A DNA stretch of 64,000 nucleotides, taken from the NCBI GenBank assembly GCA_044892505.1, contig CM097882.1, positions 148,180,001 to 148,244,000 on the forward strand, given 5' to 3'. A program made the position numbers and the translations under genes. The DNA comes from Schmidtea nova (lineage: Eukaryota). Positions 12,963 through 36,350 of the stretch are shown here, in pieces; position 1 is the first letter of the stretch, and every line of letters begins with the position of its first letter. The notes beneath the pieces are model-generated. The model was not told where the DNA came from. It made no database searches and saw only the letters and a program-made list of their open reading frames with translations.

Positions 12963-13109
12963 AACAAATATTAACAAAGACAATGCAATCCATGTGCAAA
13001 GAAACAAAGACATTGCAATCCATGTGCAACGAAACAAAGACTAATGAAATATAATTTTTAATAATAATAATTTTTTGTACAGAGATAAATTGTGTGTGTG
13101 TGTGTGTTT

Positions 13110-13216
13110 AAGACAAATTACTGTACTCATTGAACGCGCGTTTCACGCGCGTTCTTCTTCCTTGTTTTATAAGACAAATCACAGTACTCATTGAACGCGC
13201 GTGAAACGCGCGTTCT
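13110..13216. repeat. 61-bp tandem unit with a perfect 10-bp-stem hairpin, loop inverted between copies
   Basis: GAACGCGCGT-TTC-ACGCGCGTTC (13132-13154) and GAACGCGCGT-GAA-ACGCGCGTTC (13193-13215); runs into an N-gap. Confidence 0.85.
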
Positions 13217-14389: not shown

Positions 14390-17215
14390 TCAATATATAC
14401 CGGTGGATGTAGATGGCTGATCACGCAATTGCTGCTCCATCCTCACCAGGTATTCGTGGAGTCTGCGTGATTCAGCCGTTTCGCCATCATCGAATTCTTC
14501 ACCGTCATCATCAAATCCATCAGGTTCGGCTGGGGTATTGGTTTGATCATAACCTATAATAGTATTTTCTACCCTATAGTGCCCATATGCGAAACTTTTG
14601 TTTTTCGACACCCAATTGCGTTTGTCGTCGTTGCAATTGAGTGCCGTTTTTGTATTTTTCACACTGTAAACCTGATGATTTTTTGAGACTATACGAAACT
14701 GCGGGACTTTATATATTTTACTTGTTGTGTAACAGTCTAGGTAATTCGAATGGTTAAGTCCCGCAGTAGCCAAACATATGCCCTTGGCTTTTAAACACTC
14801 CTCGTCGCCAAGTAAACCATAGCATTTAGGCCGAAGAAAAACCCACTCTTCATATTTGAAGCCCTTATTTTCGTCCTTAAACTTTCCTATAACAGAATCC
14901 AAATTACGCGAAAATAAGGGATGGCTCGGGTCATAGTTTGAAGTATCTAAAAGTTGATCCCTCACCATAGCGGGCAAAAGAACAGAAAGCCTACAATTAA
15001 CAATTTCAAGAAAAAAGGAGTCTGTGTCTCCTGCTGCAATATTAATCTTACAATTAAACTCTTTCCTATATTTCTCTAACTCTATATATTGTAGTTCATA
15101 CATTCTTAGTTTAGACAAGTCCAAGACCGTCTGTCCTATATAACTTGGCCTATCTAAACACACAGACTCCTTCCTCAAAAGCACTGATATAAGATTATGG
15201 TCAATTTTCGTTGATTTTCTAAAATACGGGCTACTGCTATATGTAATTAATTTACGTGCCGAATTGCACAGTCTTAAATTGATACGTTTTTTCAGATTCT
15301 CTACGATTTTGCCGTAGAGACTGTTATTTAATAACTTAAAATAATTTTTGTCGAGTTTCGTGGTGGAAGAAGCTCTCAAAGCAGTATTTGTATCCACGTA
15401 TTTCTTAAAAAGCCTACTTTGATGATATTTAATAGCTCGATGAATTTTGGTCACTACAACACCTAACCTCAGAAACATCTGCAAAAGTCGCCAATGAAGC
15501 ACATAGTTTTTCTTAGGCATGTGCGTCAAAAGCAACTTATGCACCTTCGAACCTGGCACACACATCTTTTCAGCAGCTACTGGTAAATCATCCAGTAAGT
15601 CGTGAATAGATGCCGGTATCTCTAAATCCACTTCTATGGTATAACCATAGTTAAGTGAACATAAATCAACCGTAGTGCACTCCAACAAGATGTCATGAAG
15701 CAAGTGGTCATCCGTGACCCAAACAAAGTCCCCGTCCGGTAAGTTTTGTGAAAGAGCCCAGCCATACAGATTATTAATATCTATATACAGCAACTCTGTA
15801 TCTGGGCCTGATTTAACATGATGTTTATTAACGAAAGTGAGGCCGCCCCTGATTCCACCCTCAAAAAAGTTGTACATCTCCATATCTTGCAAAAGCTCGA
15901 TAGGAGATTCCAAAGTCATTAATGCAGAACACCAGCTCATACCTGGTATACCCAAAAAATTCAACGGCTCAAGTTTATTATGAGCTATACTCTTTGCACG
16001 AAATTGTTGAAAATAATCAGCCAAAAGAAATATGTCGAGTTTCATGTAAACCATCATATAATCAAATAATGAGGTACACGAATTTTCTCTCCATATTTCT
16101 TTTGCCTTTTCATAATCAGCAATTTCGACACCTTCCCAAATCGGCGGCAATTCAGTGGTCGACCTCAAGACAGATAAAGATGTAGCAACATCATATGGAA
16201 AAATTCCCTTACTGGTGATAATAGTCCCGGTAAATTCCGAAGAAGTAAGAGGAAAAGATGTTAGAGTTTTTACTAAGTTATTTAAAGATTCGCTAGCAAA
16301 TTGATACGAATCGATGAACTTCACTGTGAGTGATCCGATTCTCGCAAAAAGACTGAGAAACTTCTCACTGGTGACAGGAACACAGCTAATGTTCCACGAC
16401 TCGTATTTAGAAAGTCCGAATTTGAGGATATGATGTAAATCATATCCCCGTAGATTATGAAAAACTATCGGCAAAGTGTGTCGAATTTGCCTATTTATAT
16501 TACATTCGTTGCATGCTGCTCCTAGGTAAGCACCTGTAAAGTGATCGTGGTCTTTAACAGGATTTACTAAAATATTTTCACACAAGTAGCAGTGTGTTGC
16601 ATAAGAAAAATGTTGTATGTCTTCGTAGGTTAATATTATTTGCTTATTTTTATTTGCGAAATAATAGGGCGTTACGATTTTGCGACTTATATTTTCAATT
16701 TCTTGCAGGAATTTGGCAACGCAATCAAGGCCATAGAAGGATTTATATAATTTAACCCCAGTGAAATTATTAATAAGTAATAAACCCGCAGAAATGGGCA
16801 AATGTTTTTGGTAATATTTCGAGTCGTGAGGTAAAATTGCCTCAAAATCGGCATAAATTACAAAAGGAGGGGTCACTGTCTTCGTCCAGTCGCTAAAACG
16901 TAAAAATTTATTATTAGGAAGTGTATACAAAGTTGTGCCTATTTGGTTGGCATCACAAAGACCACGATGTCTCTTGAATGTATCTGAATTACGGAAGCCA
17001 TGCAAGCACCTAGGACACCATTTATTATAAATTCTCACTGGGGTTATCGCCGAAGTTTTACAATTTAAAAATTTGTCGATGTTATATATTCCTGCGTAAT
17101 GAAATTCTTTTTTATTTTCAATTAAAAGTAGGTTTATGACAGTGCCCCCCACTACTTTACTTTTATAGATAATATCGATGAATGGATGTTTCATCACTTC
17201 ACTTTTATTAGTCAA
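14390..17215 (-). CDS. polB: Family-B DNA polymerase, Polinton/Maverick (DNA_pol_B_2)-like, with a Zn/endonuclease-VII-like insert
   Basis: ExoI IYADFEA, ExoII FHNLRGYD, ExoIII YMKLD; motif A YIDINNLYG, motif B KLLNNSLYGK, motif C GDTDS; insert CYLC...DHDHFTG...ACNECN. First ATG is at 17194. Confidence 0.93.
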   Translation of the reverse strand: MTNKSEVMKHPFIDIIYKSKVVGGTVINLLLIENKKEFHYAGIYNIDKFLNCKTSAITPVRIYNKWCPRCLHGFRNSDTFKRHRGLCDANQIGTTLYTLPNNKFLRFSDWTKTVTPPFVIYADFEAILPHDSKYYQKHLPISAGLLLINNFTGVKLYKSFYGLDCVAKFLQEIENISRKIVTPYYFANKNKQIILTYEDIQHFSYATHCYLCENILVNPVKDHDHFTGAYLGAACNECNINRQIRHTLPIVFHNLRGYDLHHILKFGLSKYESWNISCVPVTSEKFLSLFARIGSLTVKFIDSYQFASESLNNLVKTLTSFPLTSSEFTGTIITSKGIFPYDVATSLSVLRSTTELPPIWEGVEIADYEKAKEIWRENSCTSLFDYMMVYMKLDIFLLADYFQQFRAKSIAHNKLEPLNFLGIPGMSWCSALMTLESPIELLQDMEMYNFFEGGIRGGLTFVNKHHVKSGPDTELLYIDINNLYGWALSQNLPDGDFVWVTDDHLLHDILLECTTVDLCSLNYGYTIEVDLEIPASIHDLLDDLPVAAEKMCVPGSKVHKLLLTHMPKKNYVLHWRLLQMFLRLGVVVTKIHRAIKYHQSRLFKKYVDTNTALRASSTTKLDKNYFKLLNNSLYGKIVENLKKRINLRLCNSARKLITYSSSPYFRKSTKIDHNLISVLLRKESVCLDRPSYIGQTVLDLSKLRMYELQYIELEKYRKEFNCKINIAAGDTDSFFLEIVNCRLSVLLPAMVRDQLLDTSNYDPSHPLFSRNLDSVIGKFKDENKGFKYEEWVFLRPKCYGLLGDEECLKAKGICLATAGLNHSNYLDCYTTSKIYKVPQFRIVSKNHQVYSVKNTKTALNCNDDKRNWVSKNKSFAYGHYRVENTIIGYDQTNTPAEPDGFDDDGEEFDDGETAESRRLHEYLVRMEQQLRDQPSTSTGIY

Positions 17216-17242
17216 GTCAACTAACGCATTTTCGTCATACGA

Positions 17243-17329
17243 TGAGTCATCGATGACGTCATTTATGAGTCATCGGGGGTCATGGATGACTCATCGATGA
17301 CGTCATTTCCTTTGTTCTGCGATGACTCA
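17243..17329. promoter_or_regulatory. Cluster of four AP-1 (TGA[C/G]TCA) and two CRE (TGACGTCA) sites in the ank-polB spacer
   Basis: AP-1 at 17243, 17266, 17287 and 17323; CRE at 17254 and 17298. Confidence 0.7.
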
Positions 17330-17345
17330 TGGTGCACACTTCTGT

Positions 17346-18614
17346 CTACTTCCACTGTATTGCGATATCCATGATGGAATTGTTCTTTCCATTTTTCCCT
17401 TCGATTTTGGCTCCTGCTTCGTATAACTCGTTTAGCACTTTGCAGTTCGTCTTCTTCCTTGCTGCGATTATCATGATTGTATCTCCGTTATCATCAACCG
17501 TATTCATATCTGCTTCGCACTTGACCATTGCTTTCGTTATTTCTAGCACTTCGTTTTCTTTCTTTCGACGTAATGCCCAGTGTATTGGCAATCTCCCATC
17601 TTTTGATAATAGGAATGCCACTGGCATTTGATTTTTGATCGTTTCTATGTCGGTCTCGTTATAATCTCCTTGTGCGTATCTGTGCACTTTCTCTGTAATT
17701 GCTCCTAATATCTCCAACGAATTTTTATTCTCTTTGAATTCCGATAATCTTTCCTGCGCTTTTGCTACGATTGCGTCTAGTCTCTCTTGGTAATCAGCTT
17801 TTGCGTTGAACAACACTGCTTTGCTTCTTATTCGTGTTTGCATCTGTTTCATCCGTTGGTCTTGATACACTGCTTGTCGGAAGAATTGTCCATACTTCAA
17901 TGCTTCCACCAGCTCTTTATATCGCTTGCTTATTTCTTTGTGCTGCTTTTGGATGTCATAGAAATGTTCGAAGCTCATATCCGGATTCCATTGCTTATCA
18001 CACCATTTCTTGATTAATCCGAATAATTCCCTCTTTCTGTCTTCCAACTTGTATTCTCTTGGGTTCTCGCTAACTCGTAACGTATCTCTCGCTATCAATA
18101 CTGCAAGTGTTTTTGGATCGTACGTTACTTCTAATAGATGTTTCAGTAACGCATTTTCTCCCCCTGTGAACACTTCATTACAATCTATGACCCACGAATC
18201 TCCTTCTGGCCGTTTCCACTTTAGCAATATTCTCCAGGTTCTACTGTTTCTTACTCCGATTGCTTGTTTCAGGATAGATCCTCTGGTTAGTTCATCGATT
18301 TCCCACGTGGCATTTTCCGTAATATACTTCAGTATTCGGTGATTCGCTCTATCAATTGCATGATTCAAGAATGTTCGTCCTTCTTTATCTTTTGTCATCC
18401 AATTCGATCTGGTGTTTCCGAAAAGCTTGATTATTTCATCGTTTCTTCCATGAATCGTCATCATCATAAGTGGAGTGATTCCTTCCCAATTTATTTTGTC
18501 GATCTCTCCTCCACCCTCGAGTATCATCTCTACGATCTCTTTTACTTTTTCGTTTCCACTGTGCTTGATTGCATTGTGCAACGCTGTGTTACCGTCTTTG
18601 TCTTGTAGATTCAA
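17346..18614 (-). CDS. Ankyrin-repeat protein (in-frame continuation of pol after one TAA)
   Basis: Repeats QDKDGNTALHNAI, NWEGITPLMM, KDKEGRTFLNHAI, SKDGRLPIHWAL, DDNGDTIMIIAA. There is no ATG start: the frame reads TAA-ACA-TTG directly after pol. Confidence 0.88.
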   Translation of the reverse strand: MNLQDKDGNTALHNAIKHSGNEKVKEIVEMILEGGGEIDKINWEGITPLMMMTIHGRNDEIIKLFGNTRSNWMTKDKEGRTFLNHAIDRANHRILKYITENATWEIDELTRGSILKQAIGVRNSRTWRILLKWKRPEGDSWVIDCNEVFTGGENALLKHLLEVTYDPKTLAVLIARDTLRVSENPREYKLEDRKRELFGLIKKWCDKQWNPDMSFEHFYDIQKQHKEISKRYKELVEALKYGQFFRQAVYQDQRMKQMQTRIRSKAVLFNAKADYQERLDAIVAKAQERLSEFKENKNSLEILGAITEKVHRYAQGDYNETDIETIKNQMPVAFLLSKDGRLPIHWALRRKKENEVLEITKAMVKCEADMNTVDDNGDTIMIIAARKKTNCKVLNELYEAGAKIEGKNGKNNSIMDIAIQWK

Positions 18615-18617
18615 TGT

Positions 18618-21600
18618 TTAAGGGATTTCCTCTAACAGCGTCCTTGTTATTGGATGTGCTGTTCTATCCTTTGCATACTCCATTACATTCTTTCGAACTT
18701 CTGTCAATATATTGAAATCGAGCCACCATTTCCATTCTGGTATAATTTCTCTGGTCCTCTTTGCAAGTTCCTTGATGTCTATTGCTTCTCTTCGATTGTC
18801 TTCTAGACTTGCTTGCGGCTTTGGTTGTACTCGCAACATATTAATTCTCGCCGTCTGTGATCTTGTCATCACCCGTTTCTCTGGTGATAGAGTTGCTGTC
18901 TTTGATATTTTCCTGCATCGACATGCATTCACGTATATTGGTCTTACCAATGGATTGTTCACCAATCGTACTCGCACATTATTTTCGTTCACTGTTGTTA
19001 TTTCATATGGCCCTTTGCCTGGTCGTTGGAGTTTCTTCACCGTACCGGGTATTATCTCTGGTGTTTCGATTATCACCCAATCTCCAACTTTTAAATCATG
19101 TGCTTTCACATTCTTTTTCTGATCATGCAGATCCTTGTAACTCTCTTGATAGAACTTGATGTTTAGTTCCGCCGTTTTCCAGATTTCTTGCATTCTTTCT
19201 TTGAACTTTGTAACGTAATCGTCAACCTCCATATACTGTGATAATGGTGGTTGGTACTCCAAATCGATTGGTAAGTTGCAATCTCTTCCGTACATCAGTT
19301 GGAATGGACTTAGCTTTGTTGCCGCATGTATTGACATTCTGTATGCCATTAAACACAGGTTTATATACTCGTCCCAGTCAGTCTGATGTTTACTGACGTA
19401 ATTTGACAACATGCCTATCAATGTTCCATTGAATCTTTCTGTTTGTCCGTTCGTTTGTGGATGGTATGGGGATGTTCGTAATTTCGCAATTCGGAAGTAG
19501 TTCGTAACTTCGTCTAATATTTCACTCATGAAATTCGTTCCTTGATCCGTTAGGATTTTCTTTGGTGTTCCGTATCTGCAGCATATCTCTTCCACCAATA
19601 TTCTCGCGACTGTTTTTGCCTTTTGATTCGGCATTGTGAATGCTTCTGGGAACTTTGTTAGATAGTCCGTGACTACTAATATATACTGATTCCCTTTTAA
19701 ACTTTCCGGCAATGGCCCAACTACGTCCATTGCTATCGTCGCCATAGGTTCTGCAGGTATTGGCATAGGTTTCAGTGGTGTTTTCCACTTCGTTCCGACG
19801 TTCTTTCTTGTCGCACAGGTTACGCAGTTCTTTATCCATTCTTTCACATCATCTTCCATGGTTGGCCAAAAATACTTTTGCCTCAATCTCCCGATTGTCT
19901 TTTTCGCTGACATATGTCCGCCTAATTTTCCGTCATGATATTGAGTCATGATTTCCTTTCGTCTATTCGCAGGTAAGCACATCAATCTCCGTTCTCCATC
20001 TTGTATCAATAACCATCCTTTTTCCAACACGTATCTATGTTGATATTTCTGCATATGTTCGCGTAACACTTGGTTCTTGCCGAATATTTCTATCCCCCTT
20101 TCTTTCAAATACTTGCTGATCAATCCCAACTCCTCGTCTTCGAGTTGATCTTTCCTTAATTCGCTGAAATCCAAATCCTCCGCTATTAATGCACATATTT
20201 TTAGAGCGTTCAGGTTCACCAATTCTGGAAATGTAAACCTTGACATGCAATCCGCGTTTGCATTTGATTTTCCTGCTTTAAACTTTATGAACGGTGAGTA
20301 TTCTTGTAACTGCATCGCCCAACGCATCAATCTACTTGATGATTCTTTATGTTGACCTAACCATACCAATGGTTGATGATCCGTCGAGATATATATTTCA
20401 TGACCCCACAATAGGTATTTGAAATGCTTGATTGCCAATATTATCGCATAGGCTTCTCTTTCCGTGACTGAGTAATTTCTTTCATGCTTCCTGAATGTTC
20501 GACTGTAATATCCAATTACTCTTTCCTTGCCTTCTTCATCGAATTGGCCTAGTACTGCTCCTGCTGCATATCCACTTGCGTCTGTTGCCAACAGAAATGG
20601 CTTCTTAAAATCTGGATGGACCAATATTGGCGCTGTAATCAGCTTGTCTCGTAATGTCTCAAATGCTGCTTGCTGTTCTGCTCCCCACACAAACGACACA
20701 TCTTGTCTTACCAATTCCTGCATTGGCTTTGATATTCCTGCATAGTCCTTGATAAACTTTCGATAATATCCACACAATCCCAAAAATTCTTGTATTTGAG
20801 TCACTGTCTTTGGTGGTGGACATTCTTTGACTTTCTCAATATTCCTTGGATCTGGTTCTTTACCTTTTGCTGATACAATGTGACCTAAGAATGTCACTTT
20901 CTCTTTTGCCCAATCGCATTTGGACGGCTTCAATTTCAGTTTCCACTGTCTCAATTTCACGAACACATTTCTGATATCTTGTAAGTGATCTTCAAATGTT
21001 GCGGAGTAGATTAATAGATCGTCGATATACACCATGCATTGTTTTATGCCATGTGTTACGAAATTCATGCATCTCTGGAATGATGCTGGCGCGTTTGTTA
21101 ACCCAAACGGCATTTTCTTGAATTGGTACAGATCTCGTCCGATTGTGAAAGCTGTCTTTTCTTTATCCTCGTCTTTCATTTTTATCTGCCAAAATCCGCT
21201 TTTTAAATCCAGTGACGTGAAATAGGCTGCTCCTTGTAGCGTCAACAACATTTCGTTTATGTCTGGCAGTGGGTACGTGTCTCTTTTCGTAACGGCATTT
21301 AATCGTCTGTAATCGATACAGAATCTCTGAGTTCCATCCTTCTTTTTCACCATCACCACTGGGAATTGCCAGGGTGAGCAACTAGGTTCGATGACCTCTG
21401 CATCTAACATCTTTTGTACCTCTTCTTCTGCTACTGCTTTTTGAGCTTCTGCCAGTTTATATGGTCGTAATGCGATTGGCGTTTCGTCCGTCAACGGTAT
21501 CGTGTGTAATGTTACATCGCATGTTCCTAAATCTAAATCCGATGCTGCGAATATATCTTGATACTCCATCAACAGTTTCTGTAGCTGTTCTTTTTGTCGT

Positions 21601-24317
21601 TCATCCAACAACACACTGTCGATTTTCCATGGTAATTCGCCTTTGCCTTTCTCATTCTTGTCTGGTATTTCGATTTCGGACATGGGTGTCAATTTACCCA
21701 AATTCTCATTCTCGTATATTATCTTGTCCTCTTCGTTGAAGTTTACCAGATTAATCGGTATCTCACCTTCTTGGTTTATCGTAACCAGTTCTCTTGCCAT
21801 TGGTAATTCCTTCTTCGCTTCGAACTTCTTACTTGGTTCGAATATCATGTCTCCTTTTATTGTCGAATCGATCTTGACATAGCACATCATTTCGTGCCTC
21901 GCTGGCACTACTATTTGTTCCGCATTTGCCACTTTAACTTTCATTCTGCAGATTTTTCCTGTTCTATCTTTTAGTTTCATTGCTCCTAGATCAATTACGA
22001 TTTCCTTGAACAGGTCTGGCATCAGGTCAGTTCCAATAATACATGGTACACTCAGCGATGGTATTACAGCGATGTACGTGTTGATCTCTGCACCTCGATG
22101 CTTAATTTTTACAAACCATCTTCCGGCTACTTCTACTGTCTCTTGACTGCACGCGATTACATGTACATTCGTCTTCTCGATTTCTCCTTGGTTTTTCTCT
22201 GGTATATAGTTAATGTCGATTGCTGAAATATTTGCGCCTGTATCGATCATGGCTTCGATTTCTCTTCCGTTTATTTCTACGGTTGTTGTTAAGATCGGTC
22301 CCATATTTGTGGACATAACTGCTATCGTGTGTGTGTCTTCTAACGAGTCTACGCTTCTACCTCGTTTTACTTTGCATCCTTCGGGAATTATCGGGTATAT
22401 ACTTGTCATCGGCATCATCTGTATCATATTCGGCTTCGCTTTGTATATCGGTTCGTTATACATTGACTGAGGTGGAGCGCTGTATCTCCAATTCTCAACT
22501 GCACTCTTTTCGTTATACTGTGGGATCTGGTTTATATTCGCTTGTCCTCCTTGATCGTCATCGTCATCGTTGCTTGAATCATCTTGTGTTCGATATCCCC
22601 TCACTCTTTCCCATAATCCTTTCCTTTCTTTCTTTAGTTGTCGTCTTGCTTGCTCATCTTGCATTATCTTTTTGAATTTCCTTCCAACATCTTCATTTGT
22701 TCCTTTCATTTTTGCAAGTATTTTCAACAATCTCTTTATTCGATGTATGTCTTTTGAGTGTCCGTGTAACACCATTGTTTTCGCGAGAAATGGTAAATAC
22801 CCTACTACCATTTTCCAATTCACTTTCTTTTCTCTCTTGTAGATATCGAAACACGCTAACATTTGCGTAATTATCACTCTGACGATTTGTATTATCAATA
22901 TAACACCCAGTATTCCAGCCATCATTTGTCCGAATATCAGGAATCTTCCCCACATTGCCTTCATCATATTTTCTGTGGCTTTCTTGAAATGTGCCGGTGA
23001 CAACAGCAGTTCATAATTCGGTCCTTCTCGATAATTCGTTCCTCCCGTTATCGTTACGATATTTGACAGTAATGCTTCTCTTCTTGCCGGGAATAATATA
23101 TTCTGCCTTGCTGCTTCCAAATCTTTTGGACTATAGATTCCGTTGTTTGAGACATCTACGTCGCTGAATTGTCTATCTTTTGATAACTGCATTAGCTCAA
23201 ATTCTCTTGGTGCTATCACTTCGGTTCTTCCTGGGAACATAACCCATTTGCCATCTGGCTTCTGATAAAGCGGTCCGTACGCGTTACTACAGTTGAATGG
23301 ATTTGGTTCAAAACCTGGTGGATTGATGATTCTCGTCACCGGTTGAACGTATCGTACTTTTCCTTTATAATCGATTTCTAGTTCGTTTGTACATTGTCCA
23401 GGTTTCAACTGCGTTGTTGCTGCTAGCGATGCATGTGTCTTTTCGCAAATGTATACATACATTGCCTCTCCAACCACTCTTCCGAAATGTCCTTCTCTCA
23501 GTGGTAATAATGGCATCGCGCTATCTGGATTAGTAATCGCTACGGCCAACTTTGTCTTCAATATTTCTCGATTCAGTATACAATCGTTGTTTATCAGATC
23601 GTAGTACACTTTTTGTAATGAGGCTTGTCCTCTATGGAATAAGAAGTCCATTTTATTATTCACATACAAGTGTAGTTTGATATCCATTGTGTCGATTTTG
23701 GGTTTCGCATTCGGCACTTCCTGCTTTGACACGTATATTCCTGGATAGTTCGTTTCGTATACCGTTGTACTACACTTAAGGGTTGCTTTCCCTTTTATGA
23801 ATCTCATTCCCACATCCTGATTTGTGGTTATCAACACTGTTGGTGTGGTTCTCATCTCTATCCGTTTTTCTCTATGATCTGGTTTCAGTTGTCTTTTGTT
23901 CTCTAAAGCCTCTTTGAGATGTTTTGCTCTAGCTTTGTCATCATCGTCTTCTTCCTGGAACGTTTTTCCTTGAATTTCGTCGAACTTTGCTCCTTGTAGC
24001 AGTTGTAATTGACATTCGTTCATTTTTGGTTTGTATACCAATGTTGACATTCCCGTTTGACACATGCTCCTGTCAATTTTACACATGGATAACGTTTTCA
24101 TTTCTCCTGTGGTCGGTTCGAAGAATGCTTCGTAGCTTTTCAGTTCGACTATATACGTATCCATCACCACTAAGTTGGTTGCGGGTACTCCGAATATTGG
24201 GTAGGTTTCTCCTTGACAATATCCTTCTCCTCCCGTAATCCGTCCTGCTACATAATACGTCTGTTGCAACATCATTCGTGGTTTTCCTTTTATCTTTATT
24301 TTGTCTCTCGTTGTCAC
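18618..24317 (-). CDS. pol: Env(C-terminal part)-Pol fusion ORF: class III glycoprotein ectodomain and TM, then PR, RT, RNase H, integrase
   Basis: Glycoprotein segments YVNNKMDF...NDCILNREIL, GEAMYVYIC, NGIYSPKDL...ILFP and TM FLIFGQMMAGILGVILIIQIV. PR IDTGA; RT YIDD; RH TDAS, TDHQPL; IN H-H-C-C, MDVVGP, TDQG, TERFN, GPY. Confidence 0.96.
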   Translation of the reverse strand: MTTRDKIKIKGKPRMMLQQTYYVAGRITGGEGYCQGETYPIFGVPATNLVVMDTYIVELKSYEAFFEPTTGEMKTLSMCKIDRSMCQTGMSTLVYKPKMNECQLQLLQGAKFDEIQGKTFQEEDDDDKARAKHLKEALENKRQLKPDHREKRIEMRTTPTVLITTNQDVGMRFIKGKATLKCSTTVYETNYPGIYVSKQEVPNAKPKIDTMDIKLHLYVNNKMDFLFHRGQASLQKVYYDLINNDCILNREILKTKLAVAITNPDSAMPLLPLREGHFGRVVGEAMYVYICEKTHASLAATTQLKPGQCTNELEIDYKGKVRYVQPVTRIINPPGFEPNPFNCSNAYGPLYQKPDGKWVMFPGRTEVIAPREFELMQLSKDRQFSDVDVSNNGIYSPKDLEAARQNILFPARREALLSNIVTITGGTNYREGPNYELLLSPAHFKKATENMMKAMWGRFLIFGQMMAGILGVILIIQIVRVIITQMLACFDIYKREKKVNWKMVVGYLPFLAKTMVLHGHSKDIHRIKRLLKILAKMKGTNEDVGRKFKKIMQDEQARRQLKKERKGLWERVRGYRTQDDSSNDDDDDQGGQANINQIPQYNEKSAVENWRYSAPPQSMYNEPIYKAKPNMIQMMPMTSIYPIIPEGCKVKRGRSVDSLEDTHTIAVMSTNMGPILTTTVEINGREIEAMIDTGANISAIDINYIPEKNQGEIEKTNVHVIACSQETVEVAGRWFVKIKHRGAEINTYIAVIPSLSVPCIIGTDLMPDLFKEIVIDLGAMKLKDRTGKICRMKVKVANAEQIVVPARHEMMCYVKIDSTIKGDMIFEPSKKFEAKKELPMARELVTINQEGEIPINLVNFNEEDKIIYENENLGKLTPMSEIEIPDKNEKGKGELPWKIDSVLLDERQKEQLQKLLMEYQDIFAASDLDLGTCDVTLHTIPLTDETPIALRPYKLAEAQKAVAEEEVQKMLDAEVIEPSCSPWQFPVVMVKKKDGTQRFCIDYRRLNAVTKRDTYPLPDINEMLLTLQGAAYFTSLDLKSGFWQIKMKDEDKEKTAFTIGRDLYQFKKMPFGLTNAPASFQRCMNFVTHGIKQCMVYIDDLLIYSATFEDHLQDIRNVFVKLRQWKLKLKPSKCDWAKEKVTFLGHIVSAKGKEPDPRNIEKVKECPPPKTVTQIQEFLGLCGYYRKFIKDYAGISKPMQELVRQDVSFVWGAEQQAAFETLRDKLITAPILVHPDFKKPFLLATDASGYAAGAVLGQFDEEGKERVIGYYSRTFRKHERNYSVTEREAYAIILAIKHFKYLLWGHEIYISTDHQPLVWLGQHKESSSRLMRWAMQLQEYSPFIKFKAGKSNANADCMSRFTFPELVNLNALKICALIAEDLDFSELRKDQLEDEELGLISKYLKERGIEIFGKNQVLREHMQKYQHRYVLEKGWLLIQDGERRLMCLPANRRKEIMTQYHDGKLGGHMSAKKTIGRLRQKYFWPTMEDDVKEWIKNCVTCATRKNVGTKWKTPLKPMPIPAEPMATIAMDVVGPLPESLKGNQYILVVTDYLTKFPEAFTMPNQKAKTVARILVEEICCRYGTPKKILTDQGTNFMSEILDEVTNYFRIAKLRTSPYHPQTNGQTERFNGTLIGMLSNYVSKHQTDWDEYINLCLMAYRMSIHAATKLSPFQLMYGRDCNLPIDLEYQPPLSQYMEVDDYVTKFKERMQEIWKTAELNIKFYQESYKDLHDQKKNVKAHDLKVGDWVIIETPEIIPGTVKKLQRPGKGPYEITTVNENNVRVRLVNNPLVRPIYVNACRCRKISKTATLSPEKRVMTRSQTARINMLRVQPKPQASLEDNRREAIDIKELAKRTREIIPEWKWWLDFNILTEVRKNVMEYAKDRTAHPITRTLLEEIP

Positions 24318-24761
24318 TTATCCATGTTTAAACAATGCTTCGCAGTCTTCTCCTTGCAACACGATTGGTTCTCTTTCCGTTCCTGACATGACAATTGCTG
24401 AATAATGTCCTCTCCCACAGTAGAATGCGAATCTCGTCTTCTGCACCTTGCATTCATTCACCATTGTCTTTATGAGTTCTGCTTCTTGATACACGTGGTA
24501 CCATTGTTCCTTTTTAATCTCTCTCAACTCTACTGGAGTTGCATCTTTGCATTGCTCCGTACCTCTCAATGAGTACTTTTCTCCCAATTTCATTTGATCA
24601 CAATCAAATACTTCGAACGTTGTTACACCTTCTGTGCTTAACAACCATACTAACATCATCATGATTATCGAGTTTAAATTCAACGTCGATCTTCCGTTTC
24701 CTTGCATCGTTTGTCTATTCTCCATTTCTTTCAATACTCCTTCGAGTTTCTTTCTCATCAC
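24318..24761 (-). CDS. env: Envelope glycoprotein N-terminus (signal peptide plus first Cys-rich segment), split from the rest by one in-frame TAA
   Basis: Hydrophobic NSIIMMMLVWLLSTEG, then FEVFDC...C...YHVYQ...ECKV...FYCG..H, as in chuvirus-like glycoproteins. Same frame as 18618-24317; ATG at 24758. Confidence 0.85.
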   Translation of the reverse strand: MMRKKLEGVLKEMENRQTMQGNGRSTLNLNSIIMMMLVWLLSTEGVTTFEVFDCDQMKLGEKYSLRGTEQCKDATPVELREIKKEQWYHVYQEAELIKTMVNECKVQKTRFAFYCGRGHYSAIVMSGTEREPIVLQGEDCEALFKHG

Positions 24762-24779: not shown

Positions 24780-25427
24780 CTATTTCTCTTTTATGAACTT
24801 TTCCCATCCTCCTTTTCTGAGGATGTAGGGTTCAATTTCTTTCTCGATAATCATCGCCGTATTCTTGATATGTCTTCCCATCGGACTTGACTTCGGACTT
24901 CCTCGGCTTAGCGTTAACAAATTGTAAATCGTATACGAGATTGCCACTAAATATTTGCTATCCGTCTCTGCTCCGTTAAGTAGCCTTTTTATTAACATCG
25001 TGGTTCCTTGCCAATCTAGATGGTTCGATTTTGTTTTTGCTTTGATTAATTCTGGCATGATCGGTGCTATTGCATTGTGTAGCATCTTTGCCTTTGTACT
25101 AGGTTCATTTATTCGCCACAAATTTTTTAATTCCGGGTCGATTATTGCTAACACATCCATTATCGTTTTGGTGAGCCATTCCTCTCCTTGACAAACTTGA
25201 TTCTCCTCTTTTCCTCTGATCTCTGCGATTTTATCTAATTTCTTCAAGCAAATCTCCCATTGCTCTTGTCTCTTTTCTTCCCTTGTCTTTGGGATTGTTG
25301 TTGCTGGATCTATCTTTGGTCTTCCTCTTGGTCGTTTTTCCATTCCAGTTTCCATTCTACAAATCTCGCTGCTCTTCCGGTTTCTTCTGTAACATCTCTT
25401 CCTTCGTTCGCTCGCTGTTCCAACCAT
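24780..25427 (-). CDS. Bcl-2-like protein with an N-terminal AT-hook-like motif
   Basis: BH2-like EPYILRKGGWEKF; BH1-position LDWQGTTMLI; helical pattern; KRPRGRPK. Confidence 0.65.
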   Translation of the reverse strand: MVGTASERRKRCYRRNRKSSEICRMETGMEKRPRGRPKIDPATTIPKTREEKRQEQWEICLKKLDKIAEIRGKEENQVCQGEEWLTKTIMDVLAIIDPELKNLWRINEPSTKAKMLHNAIAPIMPELIKAKTKSNHLDWQGTTMLIKRLLNGAETDSKYLVAISYTIYNLLTLSRGSPKSSPMGRHIKNTAMIIEKEIEPYILRKGGWEKFIKEK

Positions 25428-28400
25428 CTTTCCATTTCTTGAGTAAACTGGGGTTGTTCTTGCTCGTCTTCTGAATCGTTTACCATTTCTATGACTACCT
25501 CCTGTTCCACTCCTTGATCGTCGATTTCTGCTGGTGACGTTATTGGCATCTCTATTATTCTGTCGAAAATATTCGCCGTTGGTTTTTGAGTCAACTTCGT
25601 TAATTCTTCTATCGCTTCGTCACTGTCTGTTAATATCTCATCTACGTCATATGCTTCTGGCGGTGTTCTCTCTCTCGTTTTTATTGGTGTTGTCCTTGTT
25701 TGTCCCGAACTTGTTCCTGGGATCATTGTTGACTTCATCGGACTTGGTGCACTCATGCTTCCTTTCGCTTTCTTTTCCTCTTTAAACTTCAGTGGTTGAC
25801 CCACTATCTGTGCCACTGTTAGCGTATTCATAAGATCCAATTGTACTGGTGTCAGCCAGATTTCTAAGTTATTATCCAACGATCGTCCTTGATGTTGCAG
25901 GTGGAATGGTAGTTCGTACATCAGTTTCTCTTTAACACTTTTCACTTTCTCTGTTAGCATCACCCAAAACTCTTCTTTTCTTTGATTCGGATACATTATC
26001 CTCAAATGTATTTTCTGTGGCGTTTCTTCCGCAAATTCTTTGTTTCTCCACTTTTTTATTACATTGTCTAGTTGCTCTGGACACCACTCATTAACTCTTT
26101 TGTATTCTGCTGTCGCTTTAGCTACTTTTCTCAAGTTCGTTATGTCTTCTCCATTTGCGATTATGAATTGTGCTAAGCCTTTTATTGTTTGTCTTTTCCC
26201 CCGAGTATTTCCTCCCAACAGTTCTATTAATTCCTCCGTTTTCTGTTTCTCCAATTCTGCCCATATTACTGCAGTTTCTGGTCCGTCTAAGTCCGTTGGT
26301 AATAACCTCCTTGTTACCATACATATTCGTTTCGTATTCAGTTCATATCTGTCTTCTCCTTCCGGATCTTCTTCATACACGCCTCTTGTTACTTTCCAAC
26401 ATTTCTCTTTGTCGTCCCATTGTTTCTCTACTGGCGTCAATCGTCGTCTGTTAAGATCCAATTCTCCCAATATTGTCTCCCATTCTGGCTTTATCTGCCA
26501 GTTCCGATAGATTTCTACTATCTGCCTCAACTTGCACATAATGTCTTCTTGTCGTGCCTTTTTCCTTTCCTCATCTCTTGGTGTTGCTCTTGGCACGTCA
26601 TCCATTCTGATGACATGTATTGTCTGATAATTGTCCCATATGCCGATTTTATACGCTCGTCTTTCGTCACGTTCATTCAGTAGATGTTCGTCTTCCCGTT
26701 CTCGTTGTAATATCGTCTCATTGATGACATCTACTATTTCTCCTACTTTACTATCTGGTATTACCTCAATTTGTCTTGTCTCTTCGTTTGGTAATCTCAC
26801 GGTGATCTTCAGATCTGATACCTCTCCTCGCTTAAACATTTCTTTCCCCATCTTTGCAATTAGCTTGTCCGTTTTGAAGTTCGAATGTCTCGTTTGACTT
26901 GTATCTCGTATGTTCTCGATACATTGCTTCAAATTCCCATACTCGCTTTTTGTCAATTCCTTTCGATGTTTCTTGATTTGTTGGATGATCTGCTCTATCA
27001 TCGTATTCAAATTCTCTGCCAAAATTCTTTCTTTTGCCTCTAGCAACTGAGGTTTTATTCTCATCTCATAACACGTATTCGCTTCTTTGACGATTCCTTG
27101 TAAGTTCTCTTCCTTCTTGGTGTTGCATATAGATAACGTCGTTATTTCTCCTGGCCAGATGCCTGTGTCTATCATATGCGTTCCTTTTCTCACCAATCCG
27201 TTTTCCGAATATATGAATTTGTCTTTGTACGAGCTTCCCAATCTGTCTTCAACCCATCTGTAAATTCCGTCCGTCATTGGGTTCTTTATCCAGATTCTCG
27301 GTGAACACTCGTTTATCCATATTTGTATTATGTATTCGTTGAGTGGTTCTTTCAATAACTTCTCTATGAACTCCTGTATTACCCTCACTTCTCTTTCTTG
27401 TAACCACTCTTTATACTTCGTTTGCCATACTGCTCGTATGAACTTTCGGTATCGTTTCTTGTCGATAAACTCCTCGTTATGGATTACTTCCAACGCATTA
27501 TCCATCAGCTTCTGGATTTCATCTTCCTTTACTGACACTGTTTCTATTGTCTCGACCACTTCCATCTTTTTGTCCTCGTTTTCCGGTTCCTTTAGCATGT
27601 CTCCTGCCAGACTGCTAACTTCGCTATCGTCTTCTTCATCTGACAACTCTTGTCTTGGGTGTCTCAGCATCCCAATATGCGCGGTTGGTCTCGCTTCGTT
27701 TTTGCTAACTTCCTGTATTAGTTCATTCTCTTCTCCCGTTATTTCGACTTTTCCCATCCTCTTCTTCAATTCGTCTATTTCTTCCAACCGTCTTCGTCTT
27801 ATTTTTCCCTTAAATATTCGACTGATCCGAGTTTGATGTTTCACTGGTGGTGGGATTTTCTCCGGTTCCACCTCTCTGATGATCATCACGTTTATTTTTG
27901 TCTCCGTTACTCCCATATCTTCCCATATATCAGTCATCTTTAACTTCACTTCTGGCAAATCCTCTGTTTGTAGGAATGCTTCTCTGGGCAGTTTCGTTAC
28001 TCCCGGAATCATCTCATTTACTTTATTGAACAGTCTTTCCACTTCTTCTTTTACATCGTATTTGAATCGAAACACGTGATCATTCGGCATGATCACCAAC
28101 ATTCCTCTTTGTTTGATTCTCACTTCTTCTTCTTGATTCGCTTCTTTTTCTGTTTCTTTTTCTGTTTCTGTTTCTTTTTCTACTTCTTCAACTTTTTGAT
28201 TCTGCTCTGCGGCTTCTACTTCTTGATTCACTTCTTCTTGTTTTTGCTCTTCTTTTCTTTTCTCTTTAACTTCGAATTCGTCCGACTCATCTTGCTGCTT
28301 CTCTTCCATCATTGCTCGCATCATGTTGATCCTTGGATTTCCCTTTTTTAACTGTTGTAACCGTTGTTGTCTGACTTGTTCTTCTTCTCGTCGTATTCTA

Positions 28401-29632
28401 GCCCATTCTTGATTATGCTTCTGTTGACTCTCCCTATTTTCTCTTTCAGCCTCAGCTTCTATTACCTGGATCATGTTTATCTTTGGTTGAGCAGCTTGTT
28501 GGCTTCCCTTTGCCATGCTTTCGATTATCTCGTGTAATCTAGATACCTCCTGTCTCAACTTGGCTTCTTTCATACTGGCTTCGTTTGTACTGCTATTCGG
28601 GTTGTTACGTTGTTGACCCTGATTCCCATAGCTTGGTCGATTTCCGTAATTCTGTCTATTTCCACTGTTTGACCAACTTCTCTGTTGATTACACTCTCTT
28701 GACATGTGTCCCGCTTTTCCACATGTGTAACACGTTTTCCCATAACATCGATTCTCCGAATGACCTTTTTGTCCACACAGTTTACAGGCTACATTCTGAA
28801 AACAATCTTGTTGCCAATGTCCGTTTTTCCCACACGTCTGACATTGCCTATTCTGTCTGTCATTGTAACTATTTCCTCCATTCGTATTCGCCGTGATATA
28901 TCCGTTATTCTTCCTCGCTGGCGGTTCTTTGAACAATCTCTGTGAATGGGGAATACTTTGATTCATGTTTCTTTTTCCTTGTTCTTCATCTTCTGTCGTT
29001 TTTCCCATTACCGCCGTAATTCTCATGTCGTTCATTGCCATATGCAATTCGAATAGGTTGGCTGCCTCCAACGCTTCATCTACTGTTTTACATCCTTTGC
29101 ATCCCACTTGTGCTCTGATGTCAGGTCTCCTGAGACCTCGTACAAATAACGCTGTCATCAATTCCTCATCCACTGGGCTTCCTCTGTTGAATGCCAGTTT
29201 CGCCAACTTTCTTAATTCACTTGCGTACACTGCATTTGACTCATTTCTCTTCTGTTTTCTTGCTGAAAACTCATCGAATGCTTCATTCAGCACTTTATTT
29301 ATTCCAAACGTCTGTTGGAAGAACTCCTTGATTGTTTCCCACGTTCTGGGTGGATTACTTCCAGATCTCTTTTCAATATACAGATCCAATGCGCTATCTT
29401 TCAAGTATAGCGGGATTCGATTTGCTAACGTTTCTGCACTCCATCCGCATATATCCACGAATATGCCAAATTCCTTTAGAAACGTGTCCAATCTACTGGC
29501 GTCTCCATTGAATGGTTCGCCCTTGAATTTTTCTCTCAGATCCTCTCTGTGATCACTCATCCCGATTCCACTGTCTTGGAATACTGTACTAGTTTTCTTT
29601 GCTTCTATTTCACCACTTGTTTCTGGATTCAA
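25310..29632 (-). CDS. gag: Gag (capsid, three CCHC zinc knuckles) with a very long C-terminal extension
   Basis: Retrotransposon-gag-like PFNGDASRLDTFL...LYLKDSALDLY; knuckles CQTCGKNGHWQQDC, CKLCGQKGHSENRC, CYTCGKAGHMSREC. The frame stays open without an ATG up to 30007. Confidence 0.93.
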   Translation of the reverse strand: MNPETSGEIEAKKTSTVFQDSGIGMSDHREDLREKFKGEPFNGDASRLDTFLKEFGIFVDICGWSAETLANRIPLYLKDSALDLYIEKRSGSNPPRTWETIKEFFQQTFGINKVLNEAFDEFSARKQKRNESNAVYASELRKLAKLAFNRGSPVDEELMTALFVRGLRRPDIRAQVGCKGCKTVDEALEAANLFELHMAMNDMRITAVMGKTTEDEEQGKRNMNQSIPHSQRLFKEPPARKNNGYITANTNGGNSYNDRQNRQCQTCGKNGHWQQDCFQNVACKLCGQKGHSENRCYGKTCYTCGKAGHMSRECNQQRSWSNSGNRQNYGNRPSYGNQGQQRNNPNSSTNEASMKEAKLRQEVSRLHEIIESMAKGSQQAAQPKINMIQVIEAEAERENRESQQKHNQEWARIRREEEQVRQQRLQQLKKGNPRINMMRAMMEEKQQDESDEFEVKEKRKEEQKQEEVNQEVEAAEQNQKVEEVEKETETEKETEKEANQEEEVRIKQRGMLVIMPNDHVFRFKYDVKEEVERLFNKVNEMIPGVTKLPREAFLQTEDLPEVKLKMTDIWEDMGVTETKINVMIIREVEPEKIPPPVKHQTRISRIFKGKIRRRRLEEIDELKKRMGKVEITGEENELIQEVSKNEARPTAHIGMLRHPRQELSDEEDDSEVSSLAGDMLKEPENEDKKMEVVETIETVSVKEDEIQKLMDNALEVIHNEEFIDKKRYRKFIRAVWQTKYKEWLQEREVRVIQEFIEKLLKEPLNEYIIQIWINECSPRIWIKNPMTDGIYRWVEDRLGSSYKDKFIYSENGLVRKGTHMIDTGIWPGEITTLSICNTKKEENLQGIVKEANTCYEMRIKPQLLEAKERILAENLNTMIEQIIQQIKKHRKELTKSEYGNLKQCIENIRDTSQTRHSNFKTDKLIAKMGKEMFKRGEVSDLKITVRLPNEETRQIEVIPDSKVGEIVDVINETILQREREDEHLLNERDERRAYKIGIWDNYQTIHVIRMDDVPRATPRDEERKKARQEDIMCKLRQIVEIYRNWQIKPEWETILGELDLNRRRLTPVEKQWDDKEKCWKVTRGVYEEDPEGEDRYELNTKRICMVTRRLLPTDLDGPETAVIWAELEKQKTEELIELLGGNTRGKRQTIKGLAQFIIANGEDITNLRKVAKATAEYKRVNEWCPEQLDNVIKKWRNKEFAEETPQKIHLRIMYPNQRKEEFWVMLTEKVKSVKEKLMYELPFHLQHQGRSLDNNLEIWLTPVQLDLMNTLTVAQIVGQPLKFKEEKKAKGSMSAPSPMKSTMIPGTSSGQTRTTPIKTRERTPPEAYDVDEILTDSDEAIEELTKLTQKPTANIFDRIIEMPITSPAEIDDQGVEQEVVIEMVNDSEDEQEQPQFTQEMERWLEQRANEGRDVTEETGRAARFVEWKLEWKNDQEEDQR

Positions 29633-32524: not shown

Positions 32525-32983
32525 TTAAAAGTACACTGTTATTTTCTCGGATACGGGAAGGTTGCACATAGGACATCGTTCATTTATTTTACAGTCATTA
32601 CAGAATCGAAAATGCCCACATGGCAACAACATTATCTGTATTTTGTTTATTTCACAGATATAACACGTCAGATACTGTCTCGTATATTCGGTTGTCATTC
32701 TTATCCACTCATCGTGTTTTGTTGTTAACTGTTGTTCTAGCCTGTGGCACTCGATATTCATCTCAGGGTTGTTTAGTCGCTCTTTATACCATTGATATCG
32801 TGTTGCTGTATCCACTGTATTCTTATTCTCACTTAAGCTCATCATCCTTTCAGCTCTTTCTGTGTTGTTTGTCGGTTCATGATATTCTCCTACTTCGAGT
32901 CGTTTTAACTTTCTCATTACTGTTTTTACTGCCTCGTTGTTTGTATCGAAAAACGTTTGCATTTCTTTTATTTTGTTCTCCAT
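32525..32983 (-). CDS. Coiled coil plus C-terminal IAP/MDM2-type C3HC4 RING protein, 152 aa
   Basis: CYICEINKIQIMLLPCGHFRFCNDCKINERCPMC, ending ITVYF; no BIR domain seen. Confidence 0.85.
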   Translation of the reverse strand: MENKIKEMQTFFDTNNEAVKTVMRKLKRLEVGEYHEPTNNTERAERMMSLSENKNTVDTATRYQWYKERLNNPEMNIECHRLEQQLTTKHDEWIRMTTEYTRQYLTCYICEINKIQIMLLPCGHFRFCNDCKINERCPMCNLPVSEKITVYF

Positions 32984-33354: not shown

Positions 33355-33518
33355 TTTATTTATTATTTTTCAACCCGATTCATTCTTGCTTCAGGCCCCT
33401 CAAACCCTCTGTTATCATTTACTTTACTTTTCCTCGCTAAATTCACTTCATCCCGGTTCCTGCGCTCTAAAACTGTCCGCAGATATAAAATTCACTTGTT
33501 CCCACAAAGATCGATTTA

Positions 33519-33536
33519 ATCCCGGCTGAGCCCCCA
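33519..33536 (-). promoter_or_regulatory. Primer-binding site, tRNA-Pro-like (TGGGGGCTCAGCCGGGAT)
   Basis: Matches the known tRNA-Pro PBS TGGGGGCTCGTCCGGGAT at 16/18; lies 6 nt inside the 5' LTR boundary. Confidence 0.85.
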
Positions 33537-33932
33537 AATTTATGCTGGTGTGTTGGTTGGATGGACAACTGAGATCATTAAGATTTTATATGTTAGGGTG
33601 ATCTCGCCAACATAAAAACATTCCCCCGCTGACACCCATGATGTATCCCTAACTACTCATCATGTTGGTGCTGTGTCAACGTTGTGAAATGACAAGGCAG
33701 GTGAGCAACCTTTCGGCTACTATTCCCTTGTTTATTCACGGGTCCACCACTACCGATAGAAGGTGTTTGTGGATTTCTTTCGGTCCCTTTATAACGCGCT
33801 CCTTCCTTTGCTCTAGGGTAATTTAATTTTAACGTATCTGCAGCTTTTAAATGAATCAGGTTTTCATTACATTCAATTCTCAAACATTCCACAAGCAAAC
33901 AAGGCAAGTCAAATCATTCATCTATAATACAT

Positions 33933-34514
33933 TTATTTATAACTTAACAACACGGATGGTCTGATTACATTCCATAATTCCTGCTCGGAGAGTCCACTGA
34001 GCAGATCGACCTCTATGTCCAGGCGTTCGGCATATGCTCGACGCTCTCTACGTTTCTTCGCTCCGAGGCGATTCCTTCGCTTTGTCCTTTGAGACCCTTG
34101 TGGAATTATTGTGGTTGCTTCAGTAGTTGTAGTTACTGTTGTCTCCTTTTCGGTTTGTGTACTCGCAGTAACCGCTATCGAGTTTACCCATCGGTTGAAA
34201 GTGCTTGCCCGGATCACTGGGCGTAACTGTTCCGTTATGAATTCTTGGGTCGACACCTTGAGATAATTCGACAGTTCCAATTTCAACGCTGCGACCTCTC
34301 TAGCCTGCTCGTCGGCTACCTGTTCAGCTCGATGCCTCGCTTGTAGAATGGCCTTAACCCTCTCGGGATTAAACCACGTCGTTTTGACTCTTTGATGTTC
34401 ATCGCTTAACTGACGTAAGCGGCTCTCAAGGACTCGGGAACGTGCCTTGTGTTCACGTGCCTCTTGTTTGTAGTTTCGATTTTGGTTCTCGCTCATATCT
34501 GTAAAATGTGACAT
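33933..34514 (-). CDS. LTR-encoded ORF, 193 aa (5' LTR copy)
   Basis: Copy of 5870-6451 with one amino-acid difference (G/D). Confidence 0.55.
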   Translation of the reverse strand: MSHFTDMSENQNRNYKQEAREHKARSRVLESRLRQLSDEHQRVKTTWFNPERVKAILQARHRAEQVADEQAREVAALKLELSNYLKVSTQEFITEQLRPVIRASTFNRWVNSIAVTASTQTEKETTVTTTTEATTIIPQGSQRTKRRNRLGAKKRRERRAYAERLDIEVDLLSGLSEQELWNVIRPSVLLSYK

Positions 34515-34694
34515 TAATTAGGGTATGGGTAATCTGTCTGGTTTTCCAGTCACAGTTTTCTTATCAAACAATTGTGCTTCATCCTCATGCTCTTCTCATA
34601 CATTCGAAACCAAAAATAAAACCCTTTTAAAACGAATACATTTATTTTTCTATTTATAACAGGTATTCCCTCTCTGAATGTGTCTCTCTCGCGA

Positions 34695-35321
34695 TTAACT
34701 GAACGATCGCAACTCCTGATCGGCAGAATTCTCGTCTCGGCGAATTCCAGTTTCGTGGTACAGTTCTGGTGCTGGGTACCAACTCAATTTATCCCGGTAG
34801 ATAAATACTTCCCATAGACGAAGATCCTTGGGCTCCGGATGTTGATCCAATGAGACGCTTCCTGGAGCGTTTGGGTAGACTTGGACTTCCCCAGTGTCGC
34901 TACACCGAGGCCTGTCCAGCAGCAAGTATCCGAGTTGGTATAATGCGTGTCCTGACATCATCCCTGTGCTTAGCAGCCAGCGGGGTTGATTTGCATTATC
35001 CACGAACTGATAGAACCATCGGTCAGATTTCTGTTCGGTAGGGTTCGAGGAGGACACCCAATTGGCATCTCCTTCCCACCTCAATTGCCACTGGAATGCG
35101 CACGCTGGGATGCTAGCAGCCATACTCATGTGGTTTCTCACCCATCGACGCAGGTGTCGACGTGCTAGTTTGATAATTTGACGTGGAGCTTCCCTCTCTC
35201 CTTTGATCTCGAAATTCGCATTAGGCCTGACGACGGAGCGGATGCGCCGTTTCCTTCGGAAGGTACGATCTTCCATCTTCACGGTTAGTGAGTCTATAGG
35301 CTTCCCTAGACAGCTTTCCAT
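34695..35321 (-). CDS. LTR-encoded ORF, 208 aa (5' LTR copy)
   Basis: Copy of 6632-7258 with two amino-acid differences (D/N, F/L). Confidence 0.55.
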   Translation of the reverse strand: MESCLGKPIDSLTVKMEDRTFRRKRRIRSVVRPNANFEIKGEREAPRQIIKLARRHLRRWVRNHMSMAASIPACAFQWQLRWEGDANWVSSSNPTEQKSDRWFYQFVDNANQPRWLLSTGMMSGHALYQLGYLLLDRPRCSDTGEVQVYPNAPGSVSLDQHPEPKDLRLWEVFIYRDKLSWYPAPELYHETGIRRDENSADQELRSFS

Positions 35322-36342
35322 TTTGACCGTGTTGCTCGGAGCTGAAGAAGATGTCTAGATTAATTGACAGACACTGCTGCTGATCACAACTATATATACC
35401 GTTCGACCTACCCGACTTATCGACCAATTCTCCGTAGGCCTCAGCAGATCATTTGTATTCTACTAGACAAGTGACTGCGATGTAACGTAGGCCGTGGTTA
35501 ACGCTTTATTTTGTGAACTAATTCACTCCGCACTTTTCTCAGACTGTTTAGCTACGCTAAATTTGTATTATTGTTTACGATGTTATTTTTATATTTATTT
35601 TTCATCAGCCGTACTCAGTCACTCAACAATTTTCTATCAATGATCATAACCATCAACTATCAACGATCATGTTACTTTGGGGAACTCTAACGATCTCTTA
35701 CCGAGAATACCTTCTAATGTCCATCATTTTATCGGTTCTCAATGCATGTAACTTGTTTATTACATCTCTCGGGGGCTGGATACGTGTGATAGAATGCGCA
35801 GTCGACTACTATTACTCCTTGATGCTGTACCCTCCGTCTCTGAATTCATAGGGTCATACGACTTATGCCTTGCATACTATTATTCTCGTCAACACTCAAT
35901 TTATCAGCACTGGTGTTACTTGTTATATGTACATGTCCCTTGTCTAGATATCGCCATGATGTATACCATTCATACGAGGCTGTCTTTACTTTAATTGAAT
36001 TTACGATCGCTAGATCTTACTAGATACCCTATGTGCATTCACCCCTTTCCGCTTACCAAATATTTAGGAAACCTATGGTCCCGCCGCATCGGTACCTCAC
36101 ATGAAAATGTGTTGCACCGAGAGGCCAAGAATCCGTCAGGCTGTTAGGCCTCCGGAAAATCCTTATCGATTTTAGCATAGTTACAAATTATAATTATGAG
36201 GGTTTAAGATAATAATACAACTCGAATTTACCTTTTATTTCCACTTCCAATCAGATTTCCAATATTTTCTACAAGTTGTCAGTATTTCACACTCACTTAC
36301 ACTTGGTAAAAATAACATTGACAAATACTGATTTGACTCCGG

Positions 36343-36350
36343 TATTTATA
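36343..36350 (-). promoter_or_regulatory. Candidate LTR TATA box TATAAATA (copy at 8280-8287)
   Basis: About 400 nt inside the sense start of the LTR, flanked by a CCGGT/ACCGG inverted repeat. A CCAAT motif lies upstream; TCAGT and a GTAAGTG donor (36300-36294) lie downstream. Confidence 0.5.

Follow-up and report, generated by a model that had tools for sequence, protein, structure and literature searches.

The open reading frame (ORF) at positions 24780-25427 of the analysed window, a 64,000-nucleotide stretch of a Schmidtea nova contig, is a polyprotein fragment, bounded by a frame break on one side and a stop codon on the other. It carries a helical Bcl-2-like domain of 162 amino acids (24783-25268, minus strand), which is unbroken in the window copy, forms part of the polyprotein in other copies and, judged from sequence comparison, is very probably a diverged Bcl-2 homologue. 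The explanation that we favour, with moderate confidence, is that this domain would be anchored in the endoplasmic reticulum (ER) by the env signal sequence and would damp host cell death. The domain is maintained under purifying selection.

The ORF is enclosed by an LTR retrotransposon of 31.3 kb (5480-36745) with TG...CA ends. The 5' LTR (33543-36745) and the 3' LTR (5480-8685), both on the minus strand, are 3.2 kb each and 99.6% identical over 3,206 columns. A 4-bp target-site duplication, CAGG, is found at both element ends, at 5476-5479 next to the 3' LTR and again flanking the 5' LTR. The element reads, all on the minus strand, from an accessory RING-finger ORF (32525-32983; Pfam zf-C3HC4_3 E 5.3e-9) through tandem repeats to gag (25353-29560), which the ORF and Pfam scan shows to hold three CCHC knuckles along with a long region lacking annotation. 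The Bcl-2-like segment follows, and then env (22836-24617), a Monjiviricetes-type fusion glycoprotein (Pfam PF24664, Monjiviricetes_fusion, E 1.1e-11 and 1.8e-55). Protease, reverse transcriptase (RT), RNase H and integrase (18621-22290; Pfam) are in frame with env, and an ankyrin-repeat region lies behind integrase (17346-18617; Pfam Ank_2 E 1.5e-18). Beyond it are an accessory TRAF/MATH ORF (10736-12010; Pfam MATH_2 E 3.4e-27) and a coiled-coil-like accessory ORF of 386 aa (9486-10646).

This element is a Burro-type giant Gypsy retrotransposon, matched to published Burro by the description of its layout. It is an LTR element of about 30 kb whose other copies encode a single polyprotein of about 5,000 aa, env is placed in frame after the BCL2-like motif and ahead of protease, and the CCHC knuckles of Gag, the protease-RT-RNase H-integrase order, ankyrin repeats and MATH/TRAF are all present. 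According to the Burro section of PMC6431247, Burro1-4/GYPSM1 of Schmidtea mediterranea and a Burro-like element of Dugesia tigrina likewise exceed 30 kb and encode one polyprotein of about 5,000 aa (4,873 and 5,140 aa are given). The same section describes a Gag with three CCHC knuckles, the protease-RT-RNase H-integrase order, ankyrin repeats, tandem repeats, TRAF/MATH and RING cargo, and an in-frame env, akin to mononegavirus fusion proteins, immediately behind a BCL2-like motif, all of which are shared with the window element. The motif is reported there for Burro-2 to -4, with env in frame between BCL2 and protease. The original prediction had stated that viral Bcl-2 homologues are not typical of retroelements, which this description contradicts; Bcl-2 in a retroelement is already published for planarian Burro and is not new here (PMC6431247). 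The window element differs from the Burro elements of that section in that its Bcl-2-like domain escapes Pfam and its BH1 is degenerate, and in that TRAF/MATH forms an accessory ORF past pol, whereas published Burro has it within ORF1 or upstream. Pfam matched no BIR domain in the scanned ORFs, a set which excludes the ORF at 12239-12589, small ORFs and an N-masked stretch, and this too differs from published Burro. SUMO/ubiquitin-like and dUTPase-like motifs gave no hmmscan match; the published Burro ones came from HHpred, according to the Burro section of PMC6431247. GAG-ENV-POL errantiviruses with an HSV/gB-type Env have been reported in Platyhelminthes, Nematoda and Bryozoa, and like the window element they carry env between gag and pol (PMC13524379); neither 'Bcl' nor 'Burro' occurs in the main text of that report.

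Further features of the element and its surroundings were observed. Each LTR contains two ORFs (193 and 208 aa; 5870-7258 and 33933-35321, minus strand) without significant Pfam match, and just inside the 5' LTR, at about 33517-33535 (minus strand), is a primer-binding-site-like sequence which we take to resemble a tRNA-Pro site. A membrane-protein ORF of 174 aa lies at 8888-9412 (minus strand), and its equivalent in another copy has a weak GP41 match (E 0.0011). Another copy (L068:1-3678) has about 860 aa of polyprotein past the ankyrin repeats without Pfam match. The nested insertion at 12779-17349 carries a 934-aa ORF (14390-17194, minus strand) which by eye resembles a protein-primed family B DNA polymerase; Pfam gave Endonuclease_7 (E 0.0013) and no polymerase match for it. 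The end of this insertion is 100% identical at 39 of the 39 other matches listed, none of which is joined to the ankyrin region, so the insertion is a separate, very young repeat. Elsewhere in the window, a separate Gypsy pol ORF with RT, RNase H and integrase (46765-49686, plus strand) is followed by a 461-aa ORF without Pfam match (50113-51498), and the two are bracketed by 81-nt inverted repeats (45425-45505 and 51796-51876). Nested inverted repeats at 39413-41043 resemble a foldback or MITE-type element.

The ORF at 24780-25427 runs on the minus strand from Met to TAG over 215 aa, and the plus strand across it is closed. It had been described as a Bcl-2-like ORF between gag and env; the position is correct, but the ORF is not free-standing, since in other copies the segment is inside a single gag-env-pol polyprotein of about 5,090 aa (open frames 5,075-5,114 aa). 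The genome copy search scored 150 of 1,120 candidates, comprising 137 copies at 79-100% identity (window copy included) and 13 at 68-69%. The segment lies in an open frame of more than 5,000 aa in about 30 of the 150 scored copies (the count is 32, two of which have an internal TAA). Conservation in other copies, proposed as a check of the original prediction, was thus found for the segment, which is kept in frame in the polyprotein, and not for the TAG. At the lower end of the ORF, the TAG (24780-24782, minus strand) is a sporadic nonsense lesion of the window copy. A stop occupies this position in none of the 29 other fetched copies and in 2 of 126 copies in a genome-wide pattern count that is independent of ranking. 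Identity between the window copy and the second carrier is 94.7%, where the 30 copies compared span 93.5-95.4%; as the second carrier is mid-range and no near twin, the two stops probably have separate origins. At the upper end, comparison with other copies places a frame break at 25345-25360 (minus strand) that parts the domain from the gag frame. Other copies align from about residue 18 of the ORF and stay in the gag frame further upstream; about 25 residues at the start of the ORF are off-frame sequence foreign to the protein. The window copy has further stops at 24318-24320 (in env) and 18618-18620, and the 4.6-kb nested insertion replaces about 2.6 kb of the polyprotein's end. Broken in several places, the window copy probably makes none of the proposed products.

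These lesions bear on the earlier proposal that read-through of the TAG would supply the domain with a membrane anchor. Designed read-through at the TAG of a separate ORF would be consistent with the in-frame position of the anchor after the TAG in the window copy and with the one other copy that has a stop at the same position. Since 124 of the 126 copies lack the stop, read-through is unnecessary, and neither carrier is a near twin of the other. The off-frame start of the ORF and the other lesions of the window copy likewise leave the proposal unsupported, and we give it next to no credence; programmed read-through was rejected on the stop counts and on the comparison of the two carriers.

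Selection was measured on ten copies chosen by an env motif (45 pairs), because copies ranked by similarity to the domain gave a value of 0.014 that is biased low. dN/dS of the domain is 0.030 at a dS of 0.255, as compared with 0.063 for the linker between domain and env, 0.041 for the hydrophobic segment before env and 0.035 for env in the same ten copies. Low dN/dS common to linker, signal and env shows that the polyprotein is selected, and does not show the role of the domain. Between two subfamilies, dN is 0.16 for the domain, 0.51 for the linker and 0.016 for env.

Within the domain, the BH2-like YILRKGGWEKF is present at the C-terminus as predicted (24795-24827, minus strand), and its GGW is invariant in 16 of 16 aligned domains. 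When eight clade members were scanned one by one, this stretch gave a weak Pfam Bcl-2 match in two of them (E 0.09 and 0.14). The DWQG that had been assigned to the BH1 position is also present (25005-25016, minus strand) and is conserved in the clade, but it was rejected as BH1 since the alignment places BH1 17 residues later, at TDSK (24954-24965, minus strand). TDSK aligns with NWDR/DKDK of sister families, itself aligned with NWGR of Bcl-xL. Clade members have TDSK or TDNK at this position and lack NWGR; a clade-specific insertion of about 11 residues, in or adjoining which DWQG lies, precedes it. That BH1 is degenerate speaks against a canonical groove for BH3 binding. A conserved L-x-x-I-A helix, located 124-142 residues ahead of BH2, is found in 16 of 16 sequences and might serve as the domain's own BH3-like ligand. 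Upstream of the domain, the AT-hook-like KRPRGRPK was confirmed at 25314-25337 (minus strand). One sister family has GRGRPRK at a similar place (Pfam AT_hook E 0.059, below cut-off), and no such motif was seen in two other sister families. In one copy, the AT-hook-like motif is preceded at a distance of about 330 residues by the last occurrence of a recurring polyprotein motif, a candidate cleavage site.

The evidence for Bcl-2 ancestry is transitive and positional, as the match runs via sister families and the direct match between clade and host profiles is weak. Direct searches returned little: the window ORF has no Pfam match (E<=1), and neither the ORF nor a clade-only profile matches a PDB sequence, the sole PDB row for the ORF being chance. 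External homologues were absent at E<=0.1 among proteins of similar length and, in a weak test, among proteins of 3,258-5,000 aa. The sole match in a search of 1.84 billion representatives, an ankyrin protein sharing a GGW-like stretch only, was discarded. Scanned for Pfam Bcl-2, the genome yielded host-type genes split by introns as well as numerous repeats, the latter in frames that reach about 3,080 aa. At least 14 loci have Bcl-2-family exons in short open frames and are probably host genes or pseudogenes. Three sister families, represented by four loci, have a BH1 that ranges from near-canonical GINWDR to altered GIDKDK and GIDENR, and one of them, in frames of about 3,070 aa, is a more compact element.

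Sister families have the same order as the window's clade, namely Bcl-2 domain, linker, hydrophobic segment and env. The Pfam cut-off for PF00452 (31.4 bits), which the window domain fails, is passed by two sister-family members (34.1 and 34.3 bits); two others score 24.1 and 28.9 bits. A pattern for the start of env gave 824 matches genome-wide as compared with 65 for a control. Of the 30 env starts that come first along the genome, 22 belong to the window's clade and eight to sister families, and a GGW lies 64-74 residues upstream in the same open frame in 28 of these 30, the other two having an intervening stop. Domain-only profiles of clade and sisters were matched by hhalign at 87.7% (E 3.4e-6, 66 columns, one gap). 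With an HMM built from sisters only, nine clade sequences score 13.2-20.6 bits, a range that was reached by 1 of 900 shuffles, as compared with 0.3-2.6 for reversed sequences. Removal of the last 20 residues (BH2) leaves the register the same and lowers the match to sisters to 9.3% (P 0.0035), with 33 of 900 shuffles reaching the window's score; much of the sister-family signal is thus BH2. The sister profile in turn matches the intron-split Bcl-2-family genes of the same genome at 94.5% (hhalign), whereas the clade profile reaches only 4.3% against these genes directly. Similarly, a mixed profile retrieves Bcl-xL (E 2.7e-8) and the clade-only profile does not. Profile homology covers helices 4-8, indirectly via the sister families.

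An unrelated helical domain, whose GGW match would be due to chance or to a retained remnant, would account for the lack of a direct family, sequence or significant structure match and for the weak signal after BH2 removal. It would leave unexplained why position and spacing before env equal those of domains that score as Pfam Bcl-2, why the alignment is collinear and near gap-free over 66 columns with its register recovered without BH2, and why the predicted helix pattern fits Bcl-2, and we consider it improbable. In the fold comparison proposed with the original prediction, the models are all-helical, but pLDDT is low and no significant Bcl-2-fold match stands among the Foldseek rows. AlphaFold model 1, from seven clade sequences, has a pLDDT of 48.9, and model 2, from 16 sequences with sister families included, has 51.0. 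Foldseek found nothing at E<=0.001 for these two low-confidence models. Bcl-2-family chains make up 9 of the 46 rows listed for model 1, which was built without sister families, and 45 of the 45 rows listed for model 2 (E 0.17-0.75, TM 0.19-0.26), none of them significant; the latter result is partly circular as the alignment of model 2 included the sister families. TM-scores to Bcl-2 chains are 0.19-0.29 over both models, with an rmsd of 9-16 A. VIA searches with these low-confidence models gave best Z-scores of 5.1-6.2, mostly for unrelated helical proteins, and Bcl-2 chains are absent among the listed rows of three such searches. In one VIA list the first row is ORFV125, an apoptosis inhibitor of Orf virus (Z 5.7, rmsd 3.1, 75 aligned), tied with unrelated rows. 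A viral structure library gave nothing significant, alcelaphine herpesvirus A9 (E 1.4) and adenovirus E1B small T (E 4.2) being the rows of interest.

The domain may be compared with known Bcl-2 proteins. It shares with the Bcl-2 family (PF00452; Bcl-xL, Bak, Bax) a BH2-like motif, a predicted eight to nine helices and a downstream hydrophobic segment, and, via the sister families, collinear helices 4-8. It differs from that family in having no NWGR and no clear BH3 or BH4, in being embedded in a polyprotein, and in that its anchor would be a signal sequence that lies about 45 residues past BH2 and leads into Env. Viral Bcl-2 proteins of herpes-, pox-, asfar- and adenoviruses are captured and diverged homologues in which similarity may vanish while the fold is kept, and they are free-standing genes of DNA viruses. 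The window domain is linked to them by weak rows (ORFV125, A9 and E1B small T), none of which is significant.

The proposed anchor is a hydrophobic segment before env (24618-24683, minus strand), a putative signal or signal-anchor sequence. An env signal sequence in frame about 35 codons past the TAG had been predicted, and a hydrophobic core of 13 residues was indeed seen to start 35 codons past the TAG in frame with env, which we infer to act as a signal peptide. The segment has a 13-residue hydropathy of 2.15-3.22 and ends 9-11 residues before the DC motif of env at 30 of 30 loci; it is short, with a 19-residue hydropathy of about 1.5. No hydrophobic anchor was found before the TAG, where the best 19-residue hydropathy is 0.79 (same region, another copy), in agreement with the original prediction. 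Unbroken copies have domain, linker, hydrophobic segment and env in one reading frame and in fixed order. The idea that the env signal sequence supplies the missing C-terminal anchor therefore survives by way of polyprotein fusion and fails by way of read-through. The hydrophobic segment would act as an internal signal sequence that sends Env into the ER lumen. After cleavage by signal peptidase, the product on the Gag side, whose last domain is the Bcl-2-like one, would remain on the cytosolic side of the membrane and keep the hydrophobic segment as its C-terminal anchor. Anchoring of the domain in the ER membrane by the env signal sequence is likely by this route; the segment may be cleaved and released instead of retained. 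Flaviviral capsid or core proteins have a comparable topology, with a signal segment as C-terminal anchor. No statement of a signal-sequence anchor was found in the literature searched, and the Burro section of PMC6431247 does not mention anchoring by the env signal; Grohme 2018, Lee 2026 or their supplements may describe the domain together with an anchor.

Various roles can be proposed for a domain in this position. Under the favoured reading of an ER-anchored death suppressor, the domain would protect the host cell that expresses the element, probably not via a canonical NWGR groove. This anti-death reading is supported by its context, namely the RING and TRAF cargo of the element and the B-IAP protein of Burro1, which is reported as anti-apoptotic with a function in stem cells (Lee et al. 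2026, Dev Cell, as cited in PMC13465017). B-IAP is a different protein, described there as BIR plus RING; the RING ORF of the window element is without a detected BIR. A less likely role is that of a matrix-like tether, in which a Bcl-2-derived domain has lost its part in apoptosis and keeps the precursor of Gag close to Env at the ER so that particles can assemble. The degenerate BH1 behind its clade-specific insertion, a placement between Gag and the signal sequence of Env that is fixed in all sampled families, and within-family selection as strong as that on env are consistent with a tether. However, the signal sequence by itself would tether Gag, sister families retain a near-canonical BH1 (GINWDR), RING and TRAF give the element further cargo related to cell death and ubiquitin, and the cited anti-apoptotic activity of Burro1 B-IAP (PMC13465017) also speaks against a tether. 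We hold equally tentatively to a more general proposal, that one hydrophobic sequence would be used twice, as Env signal peptide and then as tail anchor, and that the domain, having lost NWGR under strong selection in this clade, would be either a matrix-like Gag tether at the ER or a non-canonical death regulator at the ER.

The families in this genome provide a BH1 series, from near-canonical to fully degenerate, that can be used for functional comparison. Should the domain prove to suppress cell death from an ER anchor, the elements would have a second anti-apoptotic route beside the reported B-IAP, which would strengthen the view that they shield the stem cells in which they reside.
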